A DNA stretch of 64,000 nucleotides from Spirochaetota bacterium (GTDB lineage: Bacteria > Spirochaetota > UBA4802 > UBA5550). Made by a program: the position numbers and the translations under genes. Under the pieces are notes generated by a model. The model worked only from the letters and a program-made list of their open reading frames with translations. It was not told the origin of the DNA and searched no databases. This document shows positions 2,846 through 44,709 of this stretch, piece by piece. Location: assembly GCA_029564515.1 (NCBI GenBank), contig JAKQPV010000125.1, forward strand, positions 28,287-92,286, in the 5' to 3' direction. Position 1 is the first letter of the stretch, and each line of letters opens with the position of its first letter.

Positions 2846-2887
2846 TTGACAGTTTTCCTTTAATCTTAACATAATGAATAGTATTCA
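2846..2887 (+). promoter_or_regulatory. Putative dsrA promoter (TTGACA 2846-2851, CATAAT 2870-2875) abutted by palindromic box TGAATAGTATTCA (2875-2887)
   Basis: Read directly from the sequence. There is an 18-nt spacer. The perfect palindrome ATGAATAGTATTCAT lies 49-61 nt upstream of the dsrA ATG. Confidence 0.4.
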
Positions 2888-2935
2888 TAAAATATATGGT
2901 ATTTAGTCAACTAAAAAATATTCCGGAGGTTGACC

Positions 2936-4102
2936 ATGTCCGACACCCCTCTCCTCGATGATCTTGAAAAAGGCCCGTGGCCGAGCTTTGTCAAAGAGAT
3001 GAAGCGCGCGGCGCTGAAAAGCCCGGCAGCAAAGGACCTGCTTGGCCTGGTAGAGCTGTCCTACAAAGACCGGGTAACGCACTGGAAGCACGGCGGCATC
3101 GTCGGCGTGACCGGGTACGGCGGCGGCGTTATAGGCCGGTACTCTGACGTGCCCGAGAAGTTCCCGAACGCGGAGCAGTTCCACACCGTCCGGGTCAACC
3201 ATCCCTCGAGCTGGTTCTACAACACCGAATCGCTGCGGAAGATCTGCGATCTCTGGGAAAAGTACGGGAGCGGGCTCACCAACTTCCACGGCTCCACCGG
3301 CGACATCATACTCCTGGGGACCCGCACCGAAAACATCCAGAAGTTCTTTGACGAGCTGGTAGAGCTCGGCTTCGACCTGGGCGGCTCCGGCTCCGTGCTG
3401 CGGACGCCGACGGGCTGCGTGGGGCCGGCGCGGTGCGAGTGGGCCTGCTTCGACTCGCTCGACCTGGTTTACGACCTGACCCAGACCTTCCAGGACCAGC
3501 TCCACCGGCCCCGGTGGCCGTACAAGTTCAAGATCAAGGCGTCCGCCTGCCCCAACGACTGCGTGGCGGCGATAGCCCGCGCCGATTTCACCATCATCGG
3601 CGCCTGGAGGGACAGCATCCGCATCGACCAGAAAGAGGTGAAGGAATACGCGGCGCAGGGCATGGACATCAAGGGGCTCATCGCGGACAAGTGCCCCGGC
3701 GGAGCGCTCGCCTGGGACGAAAAGAAGCGCGAGCTTTCCGTGAAGCCCGAGGACTGCACGCGCTGCATGCACTGCATCAACAAGATGACGAAGGCGATAC
3801 GGCCCGGCACGGACAGGGGCGCGTCAATCCTGATCGGCGGCAAGGCCCCGATCCAGAAGGGGGCGTTCCTCTCCTGGATGCTAATTCCCTTCATGAAGGT
3901 CGAGCCGCCGTATACCGAGATAAAGGACCTTCTCGAGAAAATCTGGGACTGGTGGGACGAGCACGGCCGCAACCGTGAGCGCATCGCGGAAACGATCGCG
4001 CGCATGGGGTTCAAGGAGTTCCTGAAGGCCCTGGGGCTCAAGCCGCTCCCGCAGATGGTCAAGCACCCGCGGTCGAACCCGTTCATTTTCTTTAACGAAT
4101 AA
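2936..4102 (+). CDS. dsrA: Dissimilatory sulfite reductase alpha subunit
   Basis: Siroheme/4Fe-4S motifs CVGPARC ... CPNDC, ferredoxin-domain CTRCMHC, and typical N-terminus [16 protein letters not shown] prefer ATG 2936 (GGAGG at 2925-2929) over the TTG at 2930 used by the track. Confidence 0.95.
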
Positions 4103-4130
4103 CCCGCAGTAACGACAAGGAGGCGGAACA

Positions 4131-5198
4131 ATGGCGAAGAAAACAGATATCGGCCCCCCCGACTACCGGATGATGCTCCCGGAGTCGATCAAGGAAAATT
4201 ACGGAAAGTGGAAATACCATGAGATACTGAAGCCCGGCCTGATGAAGCACGTCGCCGAGTCCGGTTCCGAGCTCTACACCGTGCGGGTCGGGTCCCCGCG
4301 GCTGGTCAGCATTGACTTCATCCGCGACATGTGCGACCTGGCGGACCGCTACTGCGGCGGCTACCTCCGCTTCACCAGCCGCTACAACGTCGAGTTCATG
4401 ACTCCCGAGAAGAAAAACGTGGAGCCGCTCATCGCCGACGTGAAGAAGCTGGGGCTGCCCGTGGGCGGCATCGGCGACTGCATCTCCAACGTCGTGCACA
4501 CGCAGGGATGGATCCACTGCCACAGCTCGGCGACCGACGCCTCGGGCCTGGTCAAGGCGATCATGGACGAGCTCTACCCCTACTTTACCGAATTCAGGCT
4601 GGAGGCGAAGCTCCGCATCGCCGTGGCCTGCTGCATCAACATGTGCGGCGCGGTCCACTGCTCCGACCTGGCGGTCGTCGGCATCCACACGAAGCCCCCG
4701 AAAGTCAACAACGAGAAGCTCGCCGCTACCTGCGAGATCCCCTCGGTCCTCGCATCCTGCCCCACAGGCGCCATTCACAAGCACCCGGACAAGGACGTGA
4801 AGGGCGTGGTGGTGCGCGAGGAGCGGTGCATGTACTGCGGCAACTGCTACACCGTGTGCCCGGCCATGCCCCTGGCGGACGCGGTGGGAGACGGGCTGGC
4901 CGTGTTCGTGGGCGGGAAGGTGTCCAACGCGCGCAAGCCGCCGATGTTCTCGCGGCTCGCCATTCCCTTCATCCCCAACAACCCGCCCCGCTGGCCCGAG
5001 GTGACCGGGGCGCTGAAGAATATCATAGAGGTCTACGTGAAGGACGCGCGGAAATACGAGCGGCTCGGGGAATGGATCGAGCGTATCGGGTGGGAGAAAT
5101 TCTTCCGCCTGACCGGCATCCCCTTCACCGAGCACCATATCGACGACTTCACGGGAGCGACCGAGACGTTCAGAGCGACCACGCAGTTCAAGTGGTAA
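4131..5198 (+). CDS. dsrB: Dissimilatory sulfite reductase beta subunit
   Basis: 355 aa with [34 protein letters not shown] and [12 protein letters not shown]. It follows dsrA after 28 nt. Confidence 0.95.
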
Positions 5199-5210
5199 AG
5201 GAGGCGCGCC

Positions 5211-5414
5211 ATGGCTGACCAGTCGATGGAGGAGCTGAAACAGAAGATCATCGAATTTCTAAAAAAATCGGGGCAGACGAAGAACCGGGACGTTGCCGCC
5301 GCGCTGGGAGTGGAGAAACGCCTGGTGGACAACGCCATCGGCGAGCTGAGCAGGGAGGGGGTCATCGAGTACCTCTACCTTAACGGCTCGTTTATAAAGC
5401 TGAAAGACGCGTGA
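5211..5414 (+). CDS. dsrD: DsrD, small winged-helix protein of reductive dsr operons
   Basis: 67 aa (MADQSMEELKQKIIEFLKKSGQTKNRDVAAALGVEKRLVDNAIGELSREGVIEYL...). Its size, position after dsrB and K-rich helix pattern are typical of DsrD. Confidence 0.85.
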   Translation: MADQSMEELKQKIIEFLKKSGQTKNRDVAAALGVEKRLVDNAIGELSREGVIEYLYLNGSFIKLKDA

Positions 5415-5464
5415 GGCGGCACCCCGCCGCGCGCTGCGAATACATCAAAGGAGGAACGGACACA

Positions 5465-5782
5465 ATGGCGACAATCGACCTGAATGGAGTGATGATGGAA
5501 GTCGACGAGGACGGCTTCATCCAGGAGCCGGATAAATGGACCGAAAACGTCGCGAAGGCCCTTGCCGAGAAGGAAGGGGTCAGCGAGCTGACGGAGGCCC
5601 ACTGGAAAGTCATGAACTATCTCCGCAACTATTTCCTGGAAAACGGCATAGCCCCCATGGTGCGGAAGCTTACCAAGGAGACGGGGGTCGACCTGAAGAC
5701 GATCTACTCCCTGTTCCCGCAGGGGCCCGCCAACTCCGCGTGCAAGTGGGCCGGGCTTCCCAAGCCGACCGGATGCGTCTAA
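5465..5782 (+). CDS. dsrC: DsrC (TusE/DsrC family) with both C-terminal redox cysteines
   Basis: MATIDLNGVMMEVDEDGFIQEPDKWTE... ends ...NSACKWAGLPKPTGCV, with the penultimate Cys and a second Cys 10 residues upstream. ATG 5465 is preceded by AAAGGAGG; the track start 5411 is an upstream extension. Confidence 0.9.
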   Translation: MATIDLNGVMMEVDEDGFIQEPDKWTENVAKALAEKEGVSELTEAHWKVMNYLRNYFLENGIAPMVRKLTKETGVDLKTIYSLFPQGPANSACKWAGLPKPTGCV

Positions 5783-5795
5783 GAAGCGGGCCGCG

Positions 5796-7256
5796 ATGAC
5801 GGGACCGTCCGGCGCCAGGCCGGGCATCGCCGTGGGCGGCATGCGCGGCGGCTCGGGCAAGACCGTGCTCTCGCTCGGGCTCATCCGCGCGCTCACCCGC
5901 CGGGGGCTCACCGTGGCCCCCTTCAAGAAGGGGCCGGACTACATCGACCCCTCATGGCTCTCCGCCGCGGCGGGGGTCCCCTGCTACAACCTCGACCTCT
6001 ACCTTCTTGAAAACAAGGAGAACCTCCGTTCGTATCGCGACTCGAATCCCGGCGCCGACTGGGCCGTGGTCGAGGGAAACCGCGGCCTGTTCGACGGGCT
6101 TGACGCAGAAGGCTCGGCGAGCTTTGCGGAGCTGGTGAAGCTTCTCGACATTCCGCTTCTGCTCGTGATCGACTGCTCCAAGTCGAGCCGCACGGTAGCG
6201 GCCCTTGTGCGCGGGTGCGAAACCTTCGATCCGGAGCTTGCCCCGGCCGGCATCGTGCTGAACCAGGTCGCCGGCGAGCGCCACAGCCGCACCGTGGCGG
6301 AGGCTATCGCCCGCTACTGCGCGACGCCCGTGCTGGGCGCGCTCCCCCGGATGGCCGACCTCTCCCTTGACGAGCGGCGCCTGGGGATCGTGCCGACGGC
6401 GGAGCATGACGGACCGGATGCGGTCATCGAACGCCTCGCCGACGCGGTGGAGAAACATGTCGACCTGGCCGCGATCATGAAGATAGCGGAGTCGTGGAGT
6501 ACAAGCCCCGTTTACACCCCCGGCCCCCTCCGGCCTTCCCTCGACGTTGCGCGGGACAGGCCGGCCGCCTCCCCCGCGCGCGGGGGAGGACGGGATGGCA
6601 GCGGTCCCGTACGCCGCGTGGGCGTGGTACGCGACGCGGCCTTCCACTTTTACTACGCCGAGAACCTTGACGCGCTTGAGCGGCAGGGGGCGGAGATCGT
6701 CGCGATCAATTCACTCGCCGACGCGGCCCCGCCCGTGATCGACGCGCTGTACATCGGCGGCGGGTTCCCGGAAAACCACGCCGGGGCCCTGAGCGGCAAC
6801 GCCGCCTTCCGCCGCGCGCTGAAAAAGCTGATCGAGGGCGGCCTGCCCGTGTACGCCGAGTGCGGCGGGCTGATCTACCTCTCCACGGCGATCACGGTCG
6901 AAGGCAGGCGCTACCCCATGACCGGGATATTCCCGCTCGAATTCGAGATGTCCGACAGGCCGGTCGGGCACGGTTACACGCTGTTCGAGGTGGACGGGGA
7001 TAACCCCTTTTACCGGAAGGGCACCGCGGTACGGGGGCACGAGTTCCGCTACGCGCGTATCATCAACCCGGATGCGGCCGCGGACGTACGCACCGTGCTC
7101 GCGATGCGGCGCGGGGCCGGCGTGGGAGGCGGAAGGGACGGAATGCTCGTGAAGAACTGCCTGGCGGTATTCTCGCACACCCACGCGGGGAGCGCGGGCG
7201 CGGACTGGATCGTTTCGCTTGCCGGCGCGGTGCCGGCCGGCATTACTGCTTCCTGA
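5796..7256 (+). CDS. dsrN: DsrN, cobyrinic acid a,c-diamide synthase-like (siroheme amidase)
   Basis: 486 aa of CobB/CbiA type: GGSGKTVLSLGLIRAL, PFKKGPDYIDP, and a C-terminal glutamine amidotransferase part (YAECGGLIYL). It is located in the dsr operon. Confidence 0.8.
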   Translation: MTGPSGARPGIAVGGMRGGSGKTVLSLGLIRALTRRGLTVAPFKKGPDYIDPSWLSAAAGVPCYNLDLYLLENKENLRSYRDSNPGADWAVVEGNRGLFDGLDAEGSASFAELVKLLDIPLLLVIDCSKSSRTVAALVRGCETFDPELAPAGIVLNQVAGERHSRTVAEAIARYCATPVLGALPRMADLSLDERRLGIVPTAEHDGPDAVIERLADAVEKHVDLAAIMKIAESWSTSPVYTPGPLRPSLDVARDRPAASPARGGGRDGSGPVRRVGVVRDAAFHFYYAENLDALERQGAEIVAINSLADAAPPVIDALYIGGGFPENHAGALSGNAAFRRALKKLIEGGLPVYAECGGLIYLSTAITVEGRRYPMTGIFPLEFEMSDRPVGHGYTLFEVDGDNPFYRKGTAVRGHEFRYARIINPDAAADVRTVLAMRRGAGVGGGRDGMLVKNCLAVFSHTHAGSAGADWIVSLAGAVPAGITAS

Positions 7257-7866
7257 GCCCCTCGAGAAAGCTCTCTACCGCGTAATTGATAAGGTCACGG
7301 TACTTCTCGTTCCTGAGGATGGTTTTTTCCAGCTTGTTGAACTGTATCAGGCCGTGGAGCGTGCCCCAGAGGCAGAGGGAATGGTTCAGCGTGTTGACCT
7401 TCCTGAAATCGCCCGACCTGATGCCTGCCTCGACCGAGTCTATCAGATGATTCAGGACCTTGCCGCCGGTCTTGTCGATCCTGCTCTTGAGCCGCGCCGG
7501 GAACACCTGTCCGGGCGACGACAGGAAATAGGTTATGATGTCGTAATAGCTCTTGTTCTTTTCGCTGAAATCGACGTAGGCCGTTGCGATGGCCCTGATC
7601 CTTTCCGCGGGCGTCGCGGCCGCGGCCACGACCTCGGACACGAACCGGTTCAGGATCTCGAGCCCCTCCTCCTGCAGCGCGGCGAAAATGTCTTCCTTGT
7701 TATGGTAATAGAGGTAGATCGTTCCCACGCTCAGCTCGGAGAGCTTCGCGATCTGGTTGACCGTGGTCTCGTGCAGCCCCTTCTTGAGCAGCAGCGTCCG
7801 GGCCGCTTTTAATATGTGGTTTTTCCTCGCTTCCTTTTCCCGCTCACGTCTTTCTGTCGCGCCCAT
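7243..7866 (-). CDS. TetR family transcriptional regulator
   Basis: 207 aa from ATG 7866: MGATERREREKEARKNHILKAARTLLLKKGLHETTVNQIAKLSELSVGTIYLYYHNKEDIF (TetR HTH). Only this C-terminal part of track ORF 7243..8853 is credible. It is the last gene of the minus-strand operon, and its 3' end overlaps the dsrN 3' end by 14 nt (convergent). Confidence 0.85.
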   Translation of the reverse strand: MGATERREREKEARKNHILKAARTLLLKKGLHETTVNQIAKLSELSVGTIYLYYHNKEDIFAALQEEGLEILNRFVSEVVAAAATPAERIRAIATAYVDFSEKNKSYYDIITYFLSSPGQVFPARLKSRIDKTGGKVLNHLIDSVEAGIRSGDFRKVNTLNHSLCLWGTLHGLIQFNKLEKTILRNEKYRDLINYAVESFLEGLRKQ

Positions 7867-7889
7867 ATAACCGAATCCCCCCACATGTG

Positions 7890-8720
7890 TTAATGCGAGC
7901 CGGCATCCATGTCTATTTCCGATGCCAGCTTCCCGGCCATGATCTTCTCGTACAGCGCCGGGGCCAGCCGGTGCAGGTAATAGGTGATCCTGCCGACCGT
8001 CGTCAGGACAACGATGTCCTTCCGCGCTGCCGCTCCCCGGAACACCGCCTCCGCGACGCTGTCCGGCGAGTCCACCTTCCCCGCGGTCGACTGAGGGTGC
8101 GTCGTCACCTTCCCGTCCCCGCCCAGGGCCCGCGTCTGCAGATTCGTCTTCGTGAACCCGGGGCAGACCATCATGACATGCACGCCCAGCGGCTTCACCT
8201 CGGTGCGCAGGCTCTCGAAGAGCCCGTGCAGGGCGTGCTTGCTCGCGCTGTACCCGGTCCTTCCGATGAGCGGGCTGAACCCGGCCAGGCTCGATGTCAC
8301 CAGTATCAGACCCCTTCTCTCTATCAAGCTTTTTATGGCTGCATGGGCGCAATAAAGGGCGCCGAAAAAGTTGACGTCCATGACCCGGCGGTACACGGAG
8401 AGCTCGGTCTGCAAAAAGGGACTCCGCTGGGTGATCCCGGCGTTCGCCGCAAGCACGTCGATCCCTCCCCAGAGCCGGATGATCTCCTCCATGACGACCT
8501 CGCACTCGACCTGCCTGCTCACATCGCAGGTGAAGCCGGCAGCGTCGATACCCGCTGCCTCGAGCTCCCCGACCTGGGCGGCGACCCGCTTCCGGTCCAT
8601 GTCGATAACCGCGATCCGGGCGCCCTCCCTGCCGAAGCGGCGGCAGAGCGCGGCGCCGATCCCGCTCGCCCCGCCGGTCACGGCGACGACCTTGTTCTGG
8701 AAGGAAATTATATTTTTCAT
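7890..8720 (-). CDS. Short-chain dehydrogenase/reductase (SDR)
   Basis: TGGASGIGAAL Rossmann motif and catalytic S...YSASK. Confidence 0.85.
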   Translation of the reverse strand: MKNIISFQNKVVAVTGGASGIGAALCRRFGREGARIAVIDMDRKRVAAQVGELEAAGIDAAGFTCDVSRQVECEVVMEEIIRLWGGIDVLAANAGITQRSPFLQTELSVYRRVMDVNFFGALYCAHAAIKSLIERRGLILVTSSLAGFSPLIGRTGYSASKHALHGLFESLRTEVKPLGVHVMMVCPGFTKTNLQTRALGGDGKVTTHPQSTAGKVDSPDSVAEAVFRGAAARKDIVVLTTVGRITYYLHRLAPALYEKIMAGKLASEIDMDAGSH

Positions 8721-8755
8721 GGCATTTCACCTTACGTCCAGCCCCCGCCGTTCCA

Positions 8756-8789
8756 CCGATAGGTCCGCAAGCGCTTGCGGACCTATCGG
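8756..8789. repeat. Perfect 34-bp palindrome CCGATAGGTCCGCAAGC|GCTTGCGGACCTATCGG between the MFS and SDR genes
   Basis: Read directly. Its outer arms CCGATA/TATCGG are the same as in the 14-mer family at 43874, 43941, 46405 and 50941. As RNA it would form a roughly 15-17 bp intercistronic hairpin. Confidence 0.7.
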
Positions 8790-8804
8790 GAGGGGATGGG
8801 AATA

Positions 8805-10097
8805 TCACCCCTCCGCCTCCAGCGTCACCTTCTCCACCTTGTCCCGGTCGCACTCGTAGAAAAACGAGCCAATGTAAAAGAGCACGGCTGCGACGACCAG
8901 GAAAGCCGGGAGCACCAGCAGTGCCTTATCGATACCGAAGGAATCCGAGAGCGAGCCGACCACTATCGGGCCCGTGGATGCGCCCAGAAGGTTCTGCACG
9001 ATGACGCACAGGGCATAGGATATGGCCCTGAGCCCCGGGTGCACCACGTCCTGCGTAACCGCTGCGGCGGCCGGAACAAAGGCAACGATAACCAGCCCCA
9101 TAAACAGGATAAACACGTACTGGATATTGCCGCTGAAGAAGATGAGCCCCACGGCGAGAAACAGGGCCGACAGGACCGCCACGACAGAGGAAAACAGGAG
9201 CCGCGCGTTCTTCCTCTTTTTAAACCACATGTCCGCGATGAACCCTCCCAGGGGGGCGCCGACCAGGGCCAGGATCATGACCGATCCTCCCTTGATCCCT
9301 GCCTGATCCATCGGCATGTTATGAATGCGGTTGAAGAAAGTCGGGAGCCAGGTCATGAGCGACGTGGTCACGAAGACCATGGCCGCGAAGCCGAAATAAG
9401 TGAATAGGAGCGAGGGAGTGTGGATGAATTCCCGGAAGATGTCCATTTTGCTCATTTTCACCTTCTGCCCGCCGGCGGCCTCCGAGGTCTTGAGCAGGTC
9501 AACCGTCTTGTAGTCCTTGACGAAGAAGAACAGGATGGCCACGATCAGGCCCGGCAGGGCGACAAGGCCGAAAGCATGACGCCAGCCGAATTCCTTGGCA
9601 ATGATACCGCCCAGGGCGATGCCCACGGCGCTCCCCAGCGGTATCGACGCGTTCCATATCCCCATCATGCGCGAGCGCTTCTCCTCCGGGTAGAGTCCGG
9701 CGAGCATTGCGGTCCCGCCGGGCGCGTATCCCGCCTCGCCCACGCCGATGACGCAGCGGGCGCCGAAAAGCTGGCCGAAGTTTTTCGTGAGAGCGCAGGC
9801 GGCCGTCGCGATGCTCCATATGACCGCCATGAGGCCGATCGTCTTCTTGCGGCTCCACCGGTCGACCAGGATGGACGCCGGTATGGTGAACATGACGATG
9901 GACCAGTAGATAGCCGAAACCAGCATGCCGCACTGCGCGTCGCTTATCCCCCACTCCTCCTTGATGTGCGGGAAGAGGGAGGTGACCACCATGCGGTCAA
10001 CATAATCGAAGAAATAGAGAAGGAACAACAGGATGAAAATATAGTTCGTGTAACCCTTTGATAATTTGTATTCCTTTGTGGCGGCCTGTTCGCTCAT
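8805..10097 (-). CDS. MFS transporter, anion:cation-symporter-like
   Basis: 430 aa with about 12 predicted TM segments. The FFDYVDRMVVTSLFP motif near TM1 is typical of organic-anion MFS importers. Confidence 0.85.
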   Translation of the reverse strand: MSEQAATKEYKLSKGYTNYIFILLFLLYFFDYVDRMVVTSLFPHIKEEWGISDAQCGMLVSAIYWSIVMFTIPASILVDRWSRKKTIGLMAVIWSIATAACALTKNFGQLFGARCVIGVGEAGYAPGGTAMLAGLYPEEKRSRMMGIWNASIPLGSAVGIALGGIIAKEFGWRHAFGLVALPGLIVAILFFFVKDYKTVDLLKTSEAAGGQKVKMSKMDIFREFIHTPSLLFTYFGFAAMVFVTTSLMTWLPTFFNRIHNMPMDQAGIKGGSVMILALVGAPLGGFIADMWFKKRKNARLLFSSVVAVLSALFLAVGLIFFSGNIQYVFILFMGLVIVAFVPAAAAVTQDVVHPGLRAISYALCVIVQNLLGASTGPIVVGSLSDSFGIDKALLVLPAFLVVAAVLFYIGSFFYECDRDKVEKVTLEAEG

Positions 10098-10130
10098 TGA
10101 GTCACCTCCTTTCAGGTTCCCGGATATTTC

Positions 10131-10155
10131 CGTCCCCGGTCTTGAACCGGGGACG
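10131..10155 (-). other. Intra-operon stem-loop (CGTCCCCGG-N7-CCGGGGACG) about 30 nt upstream of the MFS RBS
   Basis: Perfect 9-bp GC-rich stem read directly. There is no U-tract, so it may be a processing/stability element or a weak terminator. Confidence 0.35.
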
Positions 10156-10272
10156 GGTACGTCCTGTGAGCAAGGTGCGTCCGGCAGCGTGAGACACCCT
10201 GATATCTTACGCTACCCTATTGCTGCAAAACATCAAGTCTTTATCGGCCCGATGCCGAAAAAACAGGGATCG

Positions 10273-11967
10273 TTACGCCTTGTATCCGCCCAGGTTCGCC
10301 AGGGCCACGCTGCCCGGGCTTATCGTCGAGGGATCCACCATGACATTGATGCACGCGGTCTTGCCCGACTTGAAGGCGGCCTCGATCGCGGGCCGTATAT
10401 CCTCCGGTTTTTCGACGAACGCACCGAACCCGCCCAGGGCCTCGACCATTTTATCGTACCGGACGAGGCCGAGCTCGGTGCCGTCCTTGATCGCGTGGCC
10501 GAGCCGGAGCTGCTGGCTGTGCGCGATCATGCCCCAGAGCGTGTCGTTGGCCACGACTGCCACGATCGGCAGGTTGTTCCTGATGGCGGTGTGGAACTCC
10601 ATGAAGTTGAAGCCCACCGACCCGTCGCCGATGACTACGAGCACCCGCTTGTCAGGGTAAAGGAGCTTTGCAGCGTTAGCGTAGGGCAGTCCGACCGCCA
10701 GGCAGCCGTACAGGCCGTAGTCCAGGTAATGGCCGGCCTTCCGCACGGTGCGGGTCATGCCCATCCAGGTGGCGGTATCGCCCCCGTCCGCGGCCACGAT
10801 ATCGTCCTCCCGGTCCATGAAGTCGTTGATCTCGCGCGCCAGGCGGAGCGGGTGGATGGGCGCACCCTCCTTCTCCCAGTTGGGCTTCGCCTGCGCCTTG
10901 CCCGCAACGTCGGCCGCCCGGACCGTCTCCACCCATTCCGCGTACTGCTTCGCGAGCTTGGGCCCCGCCTTCCGCTCGTCCACCACGCGGACAAGCTCGG
11001 CGAGCATGGCCTTGATGTCGCTTACCACGCCCAGGTCAACCGCACGGTTGCGGCCGATCTCCTCGGCCTCGATGTCCACCTGTATGAATTTCGCCGTCTT
11101 CGGGAAGATGTCGCCGAATATGTAAAAGAGCGAAAGCCGTGAGCCCAGGAAGAGCACCAGGTCCGACTGCACGTTCGCCACGAACGATGCGCCCGGCCTG
11201 ATGGCCAGGGACGACTCGAAACAGAGGGGATGGGTGTCCGGAATGACGCCCCGTCCGCCCCCCAGCGTGAAGGCCGGGATGCCCGTCTTCTCCACGAATG
11301 CGACCAGCTCGTCGCCCGCGTCGGAATACCAGGCCCCGCTTCCCGCAATCACGATCGGCTTTTTCGCCTGGGACAGCATGTCCACGATCCTGGCAGCGCC
11401 GGCCGTGTCGACCATCCGCGCAGTAACCTCGCTCCCGTATTTCCTCACCTTCGTCATGTCCGCCGCCGCGTTCAGCATGTCGCAGGGCAGCTCCAGGTAC
11501 ACGGGACCCGGCCTGCCGTTGGCCGCATAGCGGAAGGCCATGTCGATGAATTCCGGCACCCGCTCCGCGTTATGGCATACCAGCGCCTTCTTGACCATGG
11601 GCTGGATGACCGGGAGCTGCGTCATGTCCTGCAGGTCCAGCTTCTCCGTCGTTTCCAGGCCCACGCACCCTGCGATCAGGATGACCGGCGCGTTGGAGAG
11701 CCGCGCGCTCGCTATGCCCGAGAGCGCATTGGTGAACCCCGGGCCCGCCGTGACCATCGCCACAGCCGGCTTGCGCGTCATGCGCGCCATCGCCTCGGCC
11801 ATGAACACGGCCGCCTGCTCGTGACGGGTCGCGAATATCTTGACGCCGGAGTTTTCCAGGAACTGGTAGATGGGCGTGATGTGGCCCCCGCTTATCGAGA
11901 AAATATATTTCACGCCCCGCTCGATCAGGGCGTCCGCCGCCAGTTTTCCGCCGATTATTTTTTCCAT
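10273..11967 (-). CDS. Thiamine-diphosphate-dependent enzyme, acetolactate synthase / oxalyl-CoA decarboxylase / 2-hydroxyacyl-CoA lyase-like
   Basis: 564 aa. N-terminal PYR domain (RHEQAAVFMAEAMARMT, TAGPGFTNAL), middle domain, and C-terminal ThDP motif GDGSVGFNFMEFHTAIRNNLPIVAVVANN-like (VIGDGSVGF...VVANDTLWG). The layout FIQVDIEAEEIGRN...VSDIK...YAEW recalls oxalyl-CoA decarboxylase. It is not an Xsc orthologue because it has a different C-terminus. Confidence 0.85.
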   Translation of the reverse strand: MEKIIGGKLAADALIERGVKYIFSISGGHITPIYQFLENSGVKIFATRHEQAAVFMAEAMARMTRKPAVAMVTAGPGFTNALSGIASARLSNAPVILIAGCVGLETTEKLDLQDMTQLPVIQPMVKKALVCHNAERVPEFIDMAFRYAANGRPGPVYLELPCDMLNAAADMTKVRKYGSEVTARMVDTAGAARIVDMLSQAKKPIVIAGSGAWYSDAGDELVAFVEKTGIPAFTLGGGRGVIPDTHPLCFESSLAIRPGASFVANVQSDLVLFLGSRLSLFYIFGDIFPKTAKFIQVDIEAEEIGRNRAVDLGVVSDIKAMLAELVRVVDERKAGPKLAKQYAEWVETVRAADVAGKAQAKPNWEKEGAPIHPLRLAREINDFMDREDDIVAADGGDTATWMGMTRTVRKAGHYLDYGLYGCLAVGLPYANAAKLLYPDKRVLVVIGDGSVGFNFMEFHTAIRNNLPIVAVVANDTLWGMIAHSQQLRLGHAIKDGTELGLVRYDKMVEALGGFGAFVEKPEDIRPAIEAAFKSGKTACINVMVDPSTISPGSVALANLGGYKA

Positions 11968-12035
11968 GAGTGGTACTCCTTGTATTAGTTTCTAACACCC
12001 TCCCCGCCTCCCATCAAGGGAAGGGGGGACTGTAA

Positions 12036-12872
12036 TCATAATTCCATCAACTGTCCGCCGGTAATGTTGATCGCCTGGCCGGTCATGTACGACGACGCGT
12101 CCGACGCGAGGAACGCGACGAGGTTCGCCACCTCCTCCGGGGTCCCTATGCGCCCCAGGGGTATGGTCTTGCACATCTCGACCTCCCTGTCTTCGGGCGT
12201 ACACTGGAACACCTTCGCCTCCAGCCCGAACCGCCACCGCTCCAGGTCGGTCATGATCTGTCCCGGGCAGATCGCGTTCGCCCGCACGCCCGCGCCCGCG
12301 AGCTCCTTGGCCATCACCCTGGTGAGCATGATCACGCCCGCCTTGGCGACGGCGTAGGCCCCGTTCATGACCGGCGGGAACTTGCCGGCGCGCGACGCGT
12401 TGTTCACGATGCTGGCCGGCTTCCCGAGCATGAGCGGGAGCACGGCCCGCGACATGCGGAACACGCCGTGCAGGTTGATGTCGATGGTTTTCATCCACGC
12501 GGCCTCGTCGTAGGTGTGGACCGCGGCCGGGACGCCGAACGAGGCGCCCGCGTTGTTGCAGAGGACGTCGACATGGTCGAACGCCGCCTTAACCGCATCT
12601 ATCAGCGCCGCGATGGAAGCGCCGCTCGACACGTCGACCTCCACGGCCAGGGTCTTTACCTCGAACTCCTTCGCAAGCATGCCGGCGATCTCCCGCATCT
12701 CTTCGGTGGTGCCGGTTGCAACCGGAGCGCCCGGGATAGCCGCAGCGCCCAGGTCCGCGATAATAACATTCGACCCCAGGGAGGCCAGCTTCCGCGCCAT
12801 GGCAAAGCCCATGCCGGTCTTCTTTCCCGATCCGGTGATCAGGGCCGTTTTATTCTTCAGATCTTCCAGCAT
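12036..12872 (-). CDS. Short-chain dehydrogenase/reductase (SDR)
   Basis: TGSGKKTGMGFAMARKL, NNAG, catalytic S...YAVAK, and PG...T downstream motif. It is the first gene of the operon. Confidence 0.85.
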   Translation of the reverse strand: MLEDLKNKTALITGSGKKTGMGFAMARKLASLGSNVIIADLGAAAIPGAPVATGTTEEMREIAGMLAKEFEVKTLAVEVDVSSGASIAALIDAVKAAFDHVDVLCNNAGASFGVPAAVHTYDEAAWMKTIDINLHGVFRMSRAVLPLMLGKPASIVNNASRAGKFPPVMNGAYAVAKAGVIMLTRVMAKELAGAGVRANAICPGQIMTDLERWRFGLEAKVFQCTPEDREVEMCKTIPLGRIGTPEEVANLVAFLASDASSYMTGQAINITGGQLMEL

Positions 12873-12921
12873 GGTGCACCTCCTCCAGAACTATAAAAAA
12901 TGAAAAAAATTGTTGTAGAAA

Positions 12922-12952
12922 TAAATATTATTCATATTATGAACAATATTCA
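12922..12952. promoter_or_regulatory. Two tandem palindromic boxes (TAAATATTATTCA 12922-12934; TGAACAATATTCA 12940-12952) upstream of the SDR/ThDP/MFS operon
   Basis: Aligns box-for-box with 16258..16288, with the same 18-bp centre spacing, conserved boxes and a non-conserved spacer. It lies in an AT-rich divergent promoter region. Confidence 0.45.
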
Positions 12953-13065
12953 CTATATTTAATACATGAGAACCTTCGTCCCCATGTCAATAGAAAATGA
13001 TATTTTCACGGATACCCGGGACCCCGGAGCAACCGGACCCGCTATCACCGGCAGGGAGGCGGGGC

Positions 13066-13305
13066 ATGCCCGGCAGGTTTGAGCTGATATACGGCTATGT
13101 CCACTGCCGCGGCGAAACGGCCTACAGCGCGGGTTTCGTTGAGACAGAGGAAGAGGCGGCCATGTGGGTCCGCTCCATGCAGGAAGGGCGCCTGCCGCGC
13201 CCCCGCGTCCCGGACGAGGAGCCGATCCGCACATGCGGCGCTTCCTTCTGCCCCCTGAAAAGCCAGCATCCCTGGTTCTCATACCGCTTTGTTGCATACG
13301 GCTAA
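13066..13305 (+). CDS. Small hypothetical protein (79 aa)
   Basis: ATG 13066 is preceded by GGGAGG. The GC3-rich codon usage resembles neighbouring genes (MPGRFELIYGYVHCRGETAYSAGFVETEEEAAMWVRSMQEG...). No recognisable domain. Its stop overlaps the ackA stop. Confidence 0.35.
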   Translation: MPGRFELIYGYVHCRGETAYSAGFVETEEEAAMWVRSMQEGRLPRPRVPDEEPIRTCGASFCPLKSQHPWFSYRFVAYG

Positions 13306-14492
13306 TTGCCCTCCTCCAGGGCTTCCGCTACTTCCCGCGCGATCTGCAGCTCCTCGTTCGCCGGAATGACCAGCCCCCGCACCGCGCTTCCCGGCGCGGT
13401 GATGATCTCCGCGTTCGCGCCGTTCGCCGCATCGTCGAGCACGAGCCCCAGGTAGCCGAAGTGCGAGAGCACCTCGCGCCTGAGATACGCGGAGTTCTCG
13501 CCGATGCCGCCGGTGAACACGATCGCGTCCACCCCGCCCATTTCCGCGCAGTACCCGCCGATGAGGCAGGTGATCCGGTTGACAAGCACGTCGCTCGCAA
13601 GCCTCGCGGCCCGGTCGCCCGAGCGCGCCTTCTCTTCTATTATCTTATAATGGCTGTCCATGCCGGAGAGCCCCAGGAGGCCGGACTCGCGGTTGACCAT
13701 CGCCCTGATCCGCTCCGGGGCGAGCCCGCGGTCCATCAGAAAAAAGACGACCTCCGGGTCAAAGGACCCGCTGCGGGTCCCCATGGGGAGCCCCTCGAGC
13801 GGCGTGAAGCCCATCGAGGTGTCCACGCTCTTTCCGCCCCGCACGGCGCACACGCTTGACCCGTTCCCCAGGTGGCAGGTGACGGTCTTCATGCTCCCGC
13901 TGTCGCGGCCGAGCAGCTCCGCCGCGCGGCGCGCCGCGTACCTGTGGCTGGTCCCGTGGAACCCGTACTTGCGTATGCCGTGATCGTCGCAGAGCTTCGT
14001 GGGGAGCGCGTACCGGTAGACCGCCTCCGGCATGGTCCGGTGAAAGGCCGTGTCGAATACCGCGTACTGGGGAGTGCCGGCAAGCAGGCCGGTGAGGGCG
14101 TCGATGCAGGCAAGCGCCACCGGGTTGTGCAGGGGGGCAAGTCCGGATATGCCCCGCAGGTATTCCATCATTTCGGGCGTGACGGGCGCGGCGCTGCCGT
14201 ACTTTTCTCCGCCGTGCACCACGCGGTGCCCGATCGCGTCGATGTCGCGGCCGCCGGAAACAAGGCCCGCGTCCCGGAGGATGACGAGCATGTCGCCGAT
14301 TGCCTCGCGGTGGTCCCGTATCGTCATGGGCGTGGATGACACGGCGCCGAGGATCCCGGTCTTCCGGATGCACTCCGGTTTCCCCGCGGCCTCGCCGATG
14401 TCCAGGTAGTGGCCCCGGGCCGCGGGCTCATCCCCCCGGTAGAGGGTGAACTTGAGCGAGCTGCTCCCCGCGTTGATGACCAGTATGTTCAC
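13302..14492 (-). CDS. ackA: Acetate kinase
   Basis: (GTG)NILVINAGSSSLKFTLY..., HRVVHGG, and FHGTSH motifs. It starts 15 nt after the xsc stop. Confidence 0.9.
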   Translation of the reverse strand: MNILVINAGSSSLKFTLYRGDEPAARGHYLDIGEAAGKPECIRKTGILGAVSSTPMTIRDHREAIGDMLVILRDAGLVSGGRDIDAIGHRVVHGGEKYGSAAPVTPEMMEYLRGISGLAPLHNPVALACIDALTGLLAGTPQYAVFDTAFHRTMPEAVYRYALPTKLCDDHGIRKYGFHGTSHRYAARRAAELLGRDSGSMKTVTCHLGNGSSVCAVRGGKSVDTSMGFTPLEGLPMGTRSGSFDPEVVFFLMDRGLAPERIRAMVNRESGLLGLSGMDSHYKIIEEKARSGDRAARLASDVLVNRITCLIGGYCAEMGGVDAIVFTGGIGENSAYLRREVLSHFGYLGLVLDDAANGANAEIITAPGSAVRGLVIPANEELQIAREVAEALEEGN

Positions 14493-14507
14493 GGCCGCCC
14501 GGCCCCG

Positions 14508-16232
14508 CTATACCGCGCTCAGGTGCTTGTACTTGGGCAGGTACCGGACCGGCGGCTTGAACGCGTCGCGCCGGAACGGCTCGGCGAGCACCTTCTCGCC
14601 GCCCTCGATCACCGCGTTGATGACCGCCGCCTTGCCGCACTTCACCGCTTCCGCCACCGCGTCCTTCACGTCCGCGTAGTTCTCCACGGTGATGCCTGTC
14701 GCGCCCATGTCGCGCGCGAGCTGGGCGTAGTCCGGGTTCGTGAGCAGGTCGGCTCCTACAAAGCGGCTCTTGAAGAAGTCAATCTGGTTCTTCTTCTCGG
14801 CCCCCCACTCGTGGTTGTTGAACACGACCGCGATCACCGGGATGTTTTCCCGCACCGCGGTCATCACCTCCGAGAGGCCGCTGATGCCGTACGCGCCGTC
14901 GCCCTGGAGGGCAAAGACCGGCGTGTCAGGCGCCGCCATCTTCGCGCCCATGGCCGCGCCGTACGCGAACCCGCAGTTGCCCCAGGAGAGCGCGGATATG
15001 TGGCGGCGCGGCTCCGAGAATGTAAGATAGCTGTTGCAGATCGAGGAGTTGTTGCCGATGTCCGTGGCCACGATGGAGCCGGCCGGTATCGCGTCGGTAA
15101 GCTCCTTGATGAAGCGCCGCGGGTGCATGAGCTTGTTTGTGGACGAAGACCAGCCGTCGAGCTCTTCCTTCCACACCGCCTTTTCCTTCGCGATGTCCGC
15201 GAGGCGGGCCGCGTCCTTCTTCCGGCCCTTGTCCGCGGCAAGCAGGGCGGCCAGGAGCTCCTTCGCGAACTCGCGCGCGTCCGCCATTACGCCCAGGTCA
15301 ATCTTCCTGGAGATGCCGAGCTGCGAGCCGTCGATGTCCACCTGTATGAGCTTCGCCGTTTTCGGCCAGTAGTCGATGTCGTACTGCGGCAGGGTGCCGA
15401 AGGGCCCGAGCCTGGTGCCGAGGGCCAGGACCACGTCCGCCTTCGCGATGGAGCGCATGGCGGCCTTGGACCCGCAATAGCCGATCGGGCCCACTGCCAG
15501 CTCGTGGTCCGCGGGGAAGGTGTCGTTGTGGAGATAGGTGTTCACCACCGGCGCGGTCAGGTACTCGGCAAGGGCCTTCACCTCGGCGTGGCCGTCGGCC
15601 ATGGATACGCCGCCGCCGGCCAGGATCACCGGGTACTTCGCACGGGCGAGCAGCTCGGCCGCCGTCCGCACCTGCCCGACCGTCCCGCCGCCGTAGTTGA
15701 CGTTCGCGGTGGGATATATATCGCAGTCAATGTCGCCGTAGAAAAAGTCGCGCGGGATGTTGAGCTGCGCCGGCCCGCACAGGAGCTTGGCCATGTAGAA
15801 GCAGCGCCGCGTCAGCTCCGCCATCCGCTCGGGACGGTTCACCCTCACCTGGTACTTGGTGCACTTCTCGAACCAGGGCATCTGGTCCAGCTCCTGGAAC
15901 CCGCCGGTGCCGATGCCCATGCTACCGGTTTCCGGAGTGATGGCGATCACGGGAGAGTGGGCCCAGAAAGCGGCGGTCACGGCCGAGATGAAGTTGGCGG
16001 CACCCGGACCGTTCTGGCCGATACAGCACTGGGGACGGCCCGAGACGCGGGCGTACCCGTCCGCGGCGTGTGCTGCCGCCTGCTCGTGCGCGACCGATAT
16101 GAACCGGATTCCCGCGGCCGGGAACAGGTCCAGCGCGTCCATGTACGCGCTGCCGACGATCCCGAATATATCGCGGATTCCTTCGGCAACAAGGGTCTCA
16201 ACAAAGGCTTCAGAGGGTGTCATTTTTGTCAT
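14508..16232 (-). CDS. xsc: Sulfoacetaldehyde acetyltransferase (ThDP-dependent; sulfoacetaldehyde + Pi -> acetyl phosphate + sulfite)
   Basis: 574 aa. Collinear with remembered Xsc sequences: MTPSEAFVETLVAEGI, QNGPGAANFISA, GGFQELDQM, AQLNIPRDFF, GPIGYCGSKAAM, ADVVLALGTRLGPFGTLPQYDIDYWPK, IQVDID, ATDIGNNSSI, GDGAYGIS, EWGAEKKNQ, and the diagnostic C-terminus LAEPFRRDAFKPPV. Confidence 0.8.
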   Translation of the reverse strand: MTKMTPSEAFVETLVAEGIRDIFGIVGSAYMDALDLFPAAGIRFISVAHEQAAAHAADGYARVSGRPQCCIGQNGPGAANFISAVTAAFWAHSPVIAITPETGSMGIGTGGFQELDQMPWFEKCTKYQVRVNRPERMAELTRRCFYMAKLLCGPAQLNIPRDFFYGDIDCDIYPTANVNYGGGTVGQVRTAAELLARAKYPVILAGGGVSMADGHAEVKALAEYLTAPVVNTYLHNDTFPADHELAVGPIGYCGSKAAMRSIAKADVVLALGTRLGPFGTLPQYDIDYWPKTAKLIQVDIDGSQLGISRKIDLGVMADAREFAKELLAALLAADKGRKKDAARLADIAKEKAVWKEELDGWSSSTNKLMHPRRFIKELTDAIPAGSIVATDIGNNSSICNSYLTFSEPRRHISALSWGNCGFAYGAAMGAKMAAPDTPVFALQGDGAYGISGLSEVMTAVRENIPVIAVVFNNHEWGAEKKNQIDFFKSRFVGADLLTNPDYAQLARDMGATGITVENYADVKDAVAEAVKCGKAAVINAVIEGGEKVLAEPFRRDAFKPPVRYLPKYKHLSAV

Positions 16233-16257
16233 GGCGGATACTCCAGGCAGGAATTAT

Positions 16258-16288
16258 TGAATAATATTCAATATGTGAACTATATTCA
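16258..16288. promoter_or_regulatory. Two tandem palindromic boxes (TGAATAATATTCA 16258-16270; TGAACTATATTCA 16276-16288) 28-58 nt upstream of the xsc ATG
   Basis: Read directly. The first box is part of the perfect 17-bp palindrome ATTGAATAATATTCAAT (16256-16272). Confidence 0.45.
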
Positions 16289-16421
16289 TTAAGCATTTCC
16301 CCTGTCAATGATTTTTTCTTATTTAAAAATAGTTTGATTTTTTTCATCAATTGGGGGCCTATGTCATCAATTATTGAGCGTGCTTCACGGCGGACCATCG
16401 CGGGGATAGGGCTGTTTTTCC

Positions 16422-44018: not shown

Positions 44019-44056
44019 TTGACAAACTAGAATATTATTCTAAAATATAATTCTAG
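44019..44056 (+). promoter_or_regulatory. Putative promoter (TTGACA 44019-44024, TAAAAT 44041-44046) with nested palindromic operator TAGAATA-T-TATTCTA (44028-44042) and CTAGAAT...ATTCTAG (44027-44056)
   Basis: Read directly. This is the classic arrangement for an autoregulated TetR gene starting at 44077. Confidence 0.5.
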
Positions 44057-44076: not shown

Positions 44077-44709
44077 ATGAAAAAGCCAAATTCGATCCAC
44101 GCTTCGACACACGGCCGTAAAAGCGACATTATCCGCGCCGCGCTCGCCTGCTTCACGGAAAAGGGCTTTACCGGCACCAGCATTGAGGACGTGTGCAGCC
44201 AATCCGGCGCGAGCGTCGGGAGCCTGTATCATCACTTCACCTCGAAGGAACTCCTGGCATCCGCCGTGTACCTGGAAGGGATCCGGGATTACCAGACCGG
44301 GCTCGTCGCCGAGCTCGAAAAGCACGCACAGGCACGGGACGGGGTCAGAGCAGTGGTCCGGTTCCACCTTGAATGGATAGAGAACAATCCCGACTGGTCG
44401 CGCTACCTGTTCCAGCAGCGCCATGCCATGTTCATGGCCGATTCGGAGGGCGCGTTCGCCCGCATGAACGCCGGCTTCATGGCCCGCCTGTCGGCGTGGT
44501 TCAGGATGCGCATCGAGGCGGGCGGGATCAGGAGACTGCCCGCCGACCTCTACCCCGCGGTGCTCCTGGGTCCCTGCCAGGAATACGCGAGGCTCTACCT
44601 GGAGGGCAGCTATACTACGCCGGTGAAGAAGGCCGCCGAGGTTCTCGCCGATGCCGCCTGGGCCGCGCTGGATCCTTCATCCGGGTCGAAGGGCAACGGG
44701 AAGAAATGA
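44077..44709 (+). CDS. TetR family transcriptional regulator
   Basis: KSDIIRAALACFTEKGFTGTSIEDVCSQSGASVGSLYHHFTSKELL (TetR HTH). I prefer ATG 44077. Confidence 0.85.
   Translation: MKKPNSIHASTHGRKSDIIRAALACFTEKGFTGTSIEDVCSQSGASVGSLYHHFTSKELLASAVYLEGIRDYQTGLVAELEKHAQARDGVRAVVRFHLEWIENNPDWSRYLFQQRHAMFMADSEGAFARMNAGFMARLSAWFRMRIEAGGIRRLPADLYPAVLLGPCQEYARLYLEGSYTTPVKKAAEVLADAAWAALDPSSGSKGNGKK

Follow-up and report, generated by a model that had tools for sequence, protein, structure and literature searches.

A predicted TetR-family operator common to sulfoacetaldehyde desulfonation and dsrAB sulfite reductase genes in uncultured Spirochaetota

The promoter regions of three operons in a 64,000-nucleotide stretch of DNA from an uncultured spirochaete (Spirochaetota bacterium, GenBank assembly GCA_029564515.1, contig JAKQPV010000125.1, positions 28,287 to 92,286; the whole stretch is referred to here as the window) carry copies of one 13-bp palindromic box, TGAAY-N3-RTTCA. 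We propose that this box is the operator half-unit of the TetR-family regulator encoded at 7243-7866, normally present as two copies 18 bp apart, and from the sequence comparisons presented herein we consider this the likely explanation of the sites. The predicted regulon of this genome would comprise xsc-ackA, for sulfoacetaldehyde acetyltransferase and acetate kinase; an operon for a short-chain dehydrogenase/reductase (SDR), a thiamine diphosphate (ThDP) enzyme, a major facilitator superfamily (MFS) transporter, a second SDR and the TetR itself (SDR1-ThDP-MFS-SDR2-TetR); the dsrABDC(N) genes of sulfite reduction; and, outside the window, an operon for a DUF819 membrane protein and an aminotransferase. 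A previous reading of the window made from its letters alone (the sequence-only reading) had suggested that one repressor co-regulates desulfonation and the terminal sulfite reductase, and had named this TetR as the candidate. The boxes conserved at xsc, SDR1 and dsrA argue for the first suggestion, and operon linkage together with co-occurrence with the sites points to the second. All comparisons are sequence comparisons of metagenome-assembled genomes, within Spirochaetota this genome (G000; 4.3 Mb in 165 contigs, 56% GC, 85% complete) and a set of 61 genomes of its order (uncultured Spirochaetota, this genome counted).

Five boxes are located in the window, at 2875-2887, 12922-12934, 12940-12952, 16258-16270 and 16276-16288, exactly where the sequence-only reading had placed them; one of its distances needs correction, as the xsc boxes lie 26-56 nt and not 28-58 nt before the ATG at 16232. 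The sites, with the weaker partner at dsrA and a third tandem pair found elsewhere in the genome, are as follows.

2875-2887, no strand: dsrA box TGAATAGTATTCA, at about -7 to +6 of the predicted dsrA promoter
2893-2905, no strand: degenerate partner box TATATGGTATTTA, 18 bp downstream of the dsrA box
12922-12952, minus strand: predicted double operator of the SDR1 operon, in gene orientation TGAATATTGTTCA-taata-TGAATAATATTTA
16258-16288, minus strand: predicted double operator of xsc-ackA, in gene orientation TGAATATAGTTCA-catat-TGAATATTATTCA
G000 contig C155, 85338-85368 (outside the window): third tandem pair, about 40 nt before the DUF819 gene

In agreement with the previous description, both double sites in the window face the same way with respect to their minus-strand genes and share the 18-bp centre-to-centre spacing. 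The 5-nt spacers of the three pairs, including the one outside the window, are unconserved (TATTA, ATATG, TCCTC). The partner box at dsrA has three mismatches; the dsrA box itself has the same letters in G015, a relative that is a 96% twin of this genome. Similarity among the four promoter regions (xsc, SDR1, DUF819 and dsrA) is confined to the boxes, which rules out shared ancestry of the regions and bears out the earlier view that these are regulator sites. An RNA hairpin is also ruled out, since T/C at box position 5 and A/G at position 9 vary independently between half-sites (T..G and C..A combinations exist), a behavior that fits a protein dimer and does not fit an RNA structure. The gap between half-sites is N3 in all 28 compiled sites.

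Chance has to be weighed in such DNA, and the outcome depends on whether single boxes or pairs are counted. Within the window the pattern TRAAYNNTATTCA gave 7 strand-matches against 0.04 expected from whole-window shuffles; with the boxes located in AT-rich islands, this control is not strict enough. A stricter one compares single boxes in every AT-rich island of the genome (800 kb in total, 39% GC) with an analytic third-order Markov expectation and shows no enrichment (13 seen, 8.4 expected, P=0.08). Pairs exactly 18 bp apart, centre to centre, number 3 in the same islands against 0.06 expected with the loosest pattern, an excess of about 50-fold, and no box pairs at other spacings from 13 to 40 bp were found in the genome. 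The sequence-only reading had cautioned that A/T palindromes arise easily in AT-rich promoter islands and had proposed a genome-wide enrichment scan; the caution holds for single boxes and fails for tandem pairs, and the scan is accordingly negative for the former and positive for the latter. Two perfect single boxes, at C107:3636 (before a gene for a Big_5 surface protein, with letters identical to TGAATAGTATTCA) and at C44:55821 (between an activase-like gene and a response-regulator gene), were judged to be chance matches, as the neighboring genes are unrelated. Independent of the sites of this genome, a 31-bp double-site matrix built from relatives' sites only and run over 8.6 million positions ranks, by locus, xsc first, SDR1 second, the DUF819 operon fifth and dsrA seventh. 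The AT-richness of these regions, the -10 that lies inside a box at xsc and a single-box frequency near expectation are what would be seen if the boxes had no dedicated regulator and were either A/T palindromes that arose by chance or ordinary elements of promoters. We find that explanation scarcely credible given the exact 18-bp pairing, a box sequence that stays constant while its position relative to the promoter differs by operon (-10, post-start or -35), the conservation of the boxes over three families with diverged flanks, and a strict double site in only 2 of the 38 genomes without the TetR.

The position of the boxes can be read against three promoters.

2846-2875, plus strand: predicted sigma-70 promoter of dsrA, TTGACA, 18 nt, CATAAT, 11 of 12 consensus matches
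12961-12990, minus strand: inferred promoter of the SDR1 operon, TTGACA at 12985-12990 and a weak -10, TGTATT, at 12961-12966
16279-16308, minus strand: predicted promoter of xsc, TTGACA at 16303-16308, 18 nt, TATAGT at 16279-16284, 11 of 12 matches

The SDR1 promoter was not called by the consensus scan and comes from aligned orthologous upstream regions, G015 having TTGACA-N18-TATAAT in the same place. At dsrA the -10 and the box have one base in common, the last of the former and the first of the latter, so that the two indeed abut, as the sequence-only reading had it. At xsc the -10 sits within the upstream box (16276-16288) and the second box covers about +2 to +14, and at the SDR1 operon the boxes lie at about +2 to +32, downstream of a conserved TTGACA-N17/18-(-10). 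Together with the promoters of relatives described below, these predicted positions over the -10, the start site, the -35 or the early transcript fit the geometry of a repressor.

The arrangement is retained in relatives to an extent that the surrounding DNA is not. The xsc gene is present in 15 of the 61 genomes, this one among them, and the array TTGACA-N14-box-N5-box is kept upstream of 13 of the 15 xsc loci (own included), which come from three families and have unrelated flanks; the TTGACA is kept at all 13 loci that retain the boxes. At the two loci without boxes, xsc is internal to an operon, behind another gene. The synteny of xsc-ackA with SDR1-ThDP-MFS-SDR2-TetR is retained in nine relatives, and eight of these keep the SDR1-operon boxes, the exception being G049, in which the cluster has no SDR1 and there is no box upstream of its ThDP gene. 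Orthologues of the DUF819 protein with at least 68% identity all have TTGACA-N14-box-N5-box, save that of G021, which has a single box located further upstream. No boxes were found before DUF819 paralogues. As a separate observation, tandem palindromes resembling TTTCACTATAGTGAAAT lie before DUF819 paralogues in other families (loci L233-L235 and L237 in family f6, and L230 in G020 of family f1) and form a different operator that is apparently conserved.

At dsrA the picture is more varied. In most congeners the divergent region between dsrT(MK) and dsrA holds a 39-bp palindrome, GTCAATTAAAAAATGAATGGTATTCATTTTTTAATTGAC (loci L074-L080), which is perfect save for the central three bases and has TTGAC on each arm, and its central box may serve both divergent promoters. 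In these congeners the perfect box has its centre about 15 bp upstream of the dsrA -35, and on the dsrA side a partner box, TAATTGACATTCA, 18 bp off includes the -35 hexamer. In family f2, dsrA has full double sites about 300 bp upstream or a triple array in 18-bp steps, and in G053 a double site precedes dsrC. Between dsrT and dsrA of the window, at 2657-2752, lies an insertion of about 95 bp, a dispersed GC-rich repeat that ends in inverted repeats (GTCATCGCGAG...CTCGCAATGAC) and has about 30 copies in the genome, full or partial. In the 96% twin G015 another GC-rich repeat occupies this position. The two insertions likely explain why the dsrA promoter differs here from that of the other congeners. 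The dsrA box persisted through the rearrangement and now abuts the -10 in this genome and its twin. No box was found at dsrA in G006 and G040, two genomes that lack the TetR. Footprinting of the dsrA and xsc upstream regions, which the sequence-only reading had put forward as a check, thus yields boxes conserved across families in flanks that have diverged.

Two alternatives turn on these dsrA promoters. The first accepts the regulon for xsc-ackA, SDR1 and DUF819 and takes the dsrA box of this genome for a chance palindrome, with dsrAB not co-regulated. It gains from the occurrence of single boxes at about chance frequency in AT-rich islands, from the copy of TGAATAGTATTCA before an unrelated surface-protein gene and from the three mismatches of the dsrA partner box. 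We nevertheless consider it unlikely, as most TetR-bearing relatives have the box upstream of dsrA in an 18-bp pair or triple (GTCAATTAAAAAATGAATGGTATTCATTTTTTAATTGAC, the double sites of f2, and G053), as G006 and G040 have neither the TetR nor a dsrA box, and as the box of this genome outlived a promoter rearrangement, still overlaps the -10 and start, and ranks seventh genome-wide as a double site. In the second alternative the TetR does bind the boxes but activates transcription or has a dual role, if only at dsrA of the congeners, where the central box lies upstream of the -35 and between divergent promoters, a common position for an activator. This is very improbable in our view: the partner box TAATTGACATTCA in those same promoters contains the -35 hexamer, the boxes at xsc, DUF819, SDR1 and dsrA of this genome lie over the -10, the start site or the early transcript, and TetR-family proteins are overwhelmingly repressors.

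Co-regulation of dsrAB with desulfonation is sensible on the distribution of the genes. A search of the 61 genomes found dsrA in only 17, which include all 15 xsc genomes. Since dsrAB is nearly confined to xsc genomes, it looks like part of a sulfonate-to-sulfide module and not like a housekeeping terminal reductase, and it is as part of such a module that its co-regulation makes sense. It seems that dsrAB was acquired and kept with sulfoacetaldehyde desulfonation in these spirochaetes. This points to sulfite respiration on organosulfonates and not to sulfate reduction.

The 207-aa protein encoded at 7243-7866 has the TetR_N domain (PF00440, 2.4e-13, residues 18-64, above the cut-off), and its AlphaFold2 model (pLDDT 92.1) has nine helices in an all-helical TetR fold of two domains, one of three helices for DNA binding and one for ligand and dimerisation. 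Foldseek gave 498 PDB matches at E<=0.001, and among the 50 listed nearly all are of the TetR family, with TM up to 0.83. An orthologue with 61-90% identity ends the same operon, 6-8 kb from xsc, in nine relatives, and a homologue is present in all 15 xsc genomes. With homologues counted at an E of at most 1e-45, a strict double site (at most one mismatch) is found in 18 of 23 genomes with the TetR and in 2 of 38 without it (Fisher 4e-9, kin included). Four of the five exceptions (G009, G013, G031 and G045) have a degenerate 18-bp pair directly before the SDR1-...-TetR operon; the fifth, G002, was outside this check. The pair is also present before the TetR operon in genomes that have the TetR and no xsc (G028, G031, G035 and G042), which indicates that the site follows the TetR and not xsc. 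Indeed, a double palindrome lies upstream of the TetR-ending operon here and in all 11 further operons that were read, and genomes with 2-5 TetR paralogues have 5-9 double sites each.

The association extends to a second phylum. Homologues in Desulfobacterota with 43-53% identity, including that of Desulfosarcina widdelii, always adjoin SDR1-ThDP, often with xsc, and a palindrome, CGAAYNNNRTTCG (CGAAY-N3-RTTCG, at most one mismatch), is found in 12 of 16 of their upstream regions, compared with 28 matches in the remaining 279 kb. It has the GAAY-N3-RTTC core in common with the spirochaete box, and its boxes are spaced by 18 or 36 bp.

Genuine box pairs could still be bound by a regulator other than this TetR, either an unlinked factor or an ArgR-like protein. 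The assignment to the TetR draws on linkage and co-occurrence, four genomes of the second family have no regulator adjoining xsc-ackA, and the ARG boxes resemble the boxes described here. However, the ArgR DNA-binding domain (PF01316) was found in none of the 61 genomes searched, with control genomes positive, which rules out ArgR itself, and the half-site gap is N3, not N4, throughout. A search for another regulator gene recurring beside the sites in relatives found none, and the pair accompanies the TetR even where xsc is absent and has a related palindrome in another phylum. A different binding protein therefore seems to us decidedly unlikely.

Several points weigh against assigning the boxes to the TetR at 7243-7866. 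The related genomes are not independent, so that the co-occurrence counts overstate the evidence, and the sites behind the consensus were gathered by pattern, so that its invariant positions are partly imposed. In the four second-family genomes xsc has no adjacent TetR, and any of their 2-5 TetR paralogues may be the one that binds a given site. Single boxes are not enriched in AT-rich DNA, and the dsrA site of this genome leans on conservation and a weak partner. Finally, an unrelated second TetR in the window, at 44077-44709, has a look-alike core at 44029-44041, where the sequence-only reading had seen it and where AGAATATTATTCT is indeed present; such palindromes are common among TetR operators. 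This second TetR is preceded by TTGACA-aac-TAGAATATTATTCTA, whose core GAATATTATTC is the same as that of the sulfonate boxes, and is followed by a ferredoxin-domain protein. Over the N-terminal 95 residues it shares just 24% identity with the first, and it is no member of the conserved family. The TAGAATATTATTCTA element is probably its own operator, and there may be cross-recognition with the sulfonate boxes.

The genes behind the boxes in the window are given below in the order of their coordinates.

2936-4102, plus strand: dsrA (Pfam; NCBIfam dsrA equivalog, 572.3 bits, cut-off 392.85)
4131-5198, plus strand: dsrB (Pfam; NCBIfam dsrB equivalog, 509.2 bits, cut-off 341.5)
5211-5414, plus strand: dsrD-like small open reading frame
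5411-5782, plus strand: open reading frame of dsrC (DsrC family match)
5796-7256, plus strand: cobyrinic-acid-diamide-synthase-like gene, dsrN-type (Pfam)
7243-7866, minus strand: TetR-family regulator, last gene of the SDR1 operon
7890-8720, minus strand: SDR2 (Pfam), SDR1 operon
8805-10097, minus strand: MFS transporter (Pfam), SDR1 operon
10273-11967, minus strand: ThDP enzyme (Pfam), SDR1 operon
12036-12872, minus strand: SDR1 (Pfam), first gene of the SDR1 operon
13302-14492, minus strand: ackA (Pfam Acetate_kinase, 2e-124)
14508-16232, minus strand: xsc (NCBIfam TIGR03457 sulfoacetaldehyde acetyltransferase equivalog, 771.9 bits, cut-off 676.4)

The names dsrD and dsrN are presumed from position and general knowledge. 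One copy of dsrAB was found in this 85%-complete assembly. The ThDP enzyme of the SDR1 operon is under every NCBIfam cut-off, its nearest models being of the acetolactate synthase type, 2-hydroxyacyl-CoA lyase and oxalyl-CoA decarboxylase, and the SDR1-ThDP-(transporter)-SDR2 module could supply a route to sulfoacetaldehyde that has not been described. Outside the window, the boxed operon at C155:82887-85368 consists of the DUF819 membrane protein followed by a HemL-like class-III aminotransferase, candidates for an aminosulfonate importer and a transaminase that feed Xsc. A paralogous cluster that has no boxes, at G000:C84:65352-69524, encodes an aminotransferase, an Xsc-like ThDP enzyme and a DUF819 protein. 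An orphan gene of 287 aa divergent from xsc was considered as a general regulator and rejected, as it has no domain and adjoins xsc only here and in the 96% twin.

Based on these data, we put forward a hypothetical mechanism in which two TetR dimers would occupy the tandem boxes and thereby block RNA polymerase. Three targets, xsc-ackA, the DUF819-aminotransferase operon and the dsrA of this genome, would be blocked over the -10 and start site; at the SDR1-ThDP-MFS-SDR2-TetR operon the boxes would span the first 30 or so transcribed bases, and at dsrA of most congeners they would overlap the -35. A small molecule from the sulfonate pathway would release the TetR, leading to the joint induction of uptake, conversion to sulfoacetaldehyde, desulfonation by Xsc, ATP formation by AckA, sulfite reduction by DsrABDC and synthesis of the repressor. 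The TetR would control its own gene too, since this gene comes last in a boxed operon.

A broader reading, which we hold tentatively and give slightly less than an even chance, is that the TetR is the sensor and master switch of organosulfonate respiration from Spirochaetota to Desulfobacterota, that the SDR-ThDP pair, its constant partner, forms a new ThDP-dependent route into sulfoacetaldehyde, and that a substrate or intermediate of this pathway is the effector. The Spirochaetota regulon would then comprise transport, the candidate aminosulfonate transaminase, Xsc/AckA, DsrABDC and, in some genomes, a CoA-disulfide-reductase/rhodanese protein. The last of these is found in genomes of family f2 (G043, G054, G059 and G037; loci L191, L197, L199 and L201), in which a double operator precedes the gene of a CoA-disulfide-reductase-like flavoprotein with a C-terminal rhodanese domain. 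Proteins of this kind are of the persulfide or polysulfide reductase type. Other f2 genes behind double sites are a Na:alanine-family symporter, a Glt-type symporter, further SDR operons and an aldehyde:ferredoxin oxidoreductase.

If the proposed assignment is correct, sulfite reduction in these organisms would be inducible within a sulfonate-catabolic regulon and would not be a constitutive respiration. The operator would also serve as a sequence tag for members of the regulon, and in this genome it tags the DUF819 transporter and the class-III aminotransferase; should the master-switch reading hold, it could guide the search for genes of anaerobic sulfonate respiration in uncultured bacteria. 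The SDR-ThDP module, tied to the TetR over two phyla, is the part that most deserves biochemical study. The regulator and its operator make a small pair that might find use as a switch responsive to sulfonates.

Some further sites in this genome should be noted. The relatives-only matrix gave high-scoring double sites at C138:16538-16568 (TTGAAATAGTTCA-taata-TGAACGTAATTCA, between SIR2-family and 2-oxoacid dehydrogenase acyltransferase-like genes) and at C84:43355-43385 (beside hypothetical genes), both of which may be extra regulon members or chance. The locus C120:37037-37699 holds a distant TetR paralogue of the TetR_C_13 type (26% identity) with three TGA-N7-TCA-like boxes, 18 bp apart, in front of it (TGACCCCAATCCA, TGAATAATAGTCA and TGGCTAAAAGTCA), and the stretch before this paralogue, C120:37651-37699, is the third high-scoring double-site candidate.

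To our knowledge, little is known of dsrAB regulation, and we know of no regulator described for anaerobic Xsc-based sulfonate respiration in Spirochaetota. A literature search found no TetR-type regulator of xsc, sulfoacetaldehyde or dsr genes, and nothing on spirochaete dsrAB together with xsc. The nearest solved relatives of the TetR at 7243-7866 are the FadR (YsiA)-type TetRs of Bacillus (PDB 3WHB/3WHC, 1VI0 and 5GP9/5GPA; E 1e-8 to 1e-9, TM 0.75-0.83). The operator of Bacillus halodurans FadR, GATGAATGAATACTCATTCAT, has TGAAT/ATTCA half-sites and is bound by two dimers that do not touch each other, and ligand relieves the repression (PMC5397183). The likeness to the proposed system lies in the TGAAT/ATTCA-type half-sites and in a two-dimer operator that resembles the proposed two-dimer sites. 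However, identity is only about 22%, the match to the FadR equivalog NF053878 scores 57.3 bits and stays below the cut-off of 200, and the FadR operator consists of two overlapping 16-bp inverted repeats with a 4-bp offset, in contrast to the two separate 13-bp palindromes 18 bp apart found here. The regulons also differ, fatty-acid degradation in the case of FadR and, by prediction, sulfonate and sulfite metabolism in the case of this TetR. Hence the protein is a relative of FadR and no member of the FadR equivalog.

Other known systems share single features with the one proposed. TetR/tetO and QacR/IR1 combine an N-terminal helix-turn-helix and a ligand-binding helical domain with palindromic operators over the promoter, with two operators or two dimers per promoter and with a regulator that controls its own expression. 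They control an adjacent efflux gene, whereas here the predicted targets are at least four catabolic and respiratory operons that are unlinked or separate. The ARG boxes of ArgR/AhrC (TGAAT-N4-ATTCA) are likewise tandem, AT-rich and placed over promoters, but they have N4 and a spacing of about 21 bp in place of N3 and 18 bp, and the targets here are unrelated to arginine. Xsc-type desulfonation is under sulfonate-responsive control in Proteobacteria by TauR of Rhodobacter (MocR/GntR type) and by regulators that lie by the sau and ise genes. These belong to protein families other than that of this TetR, are mostly activators and have different sites, and we know of none reported to include dsrAB in its control. 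In kind, a TetR repressor with palindromic operators would be an ordinary system; it is the predicted regulon itself that is new.

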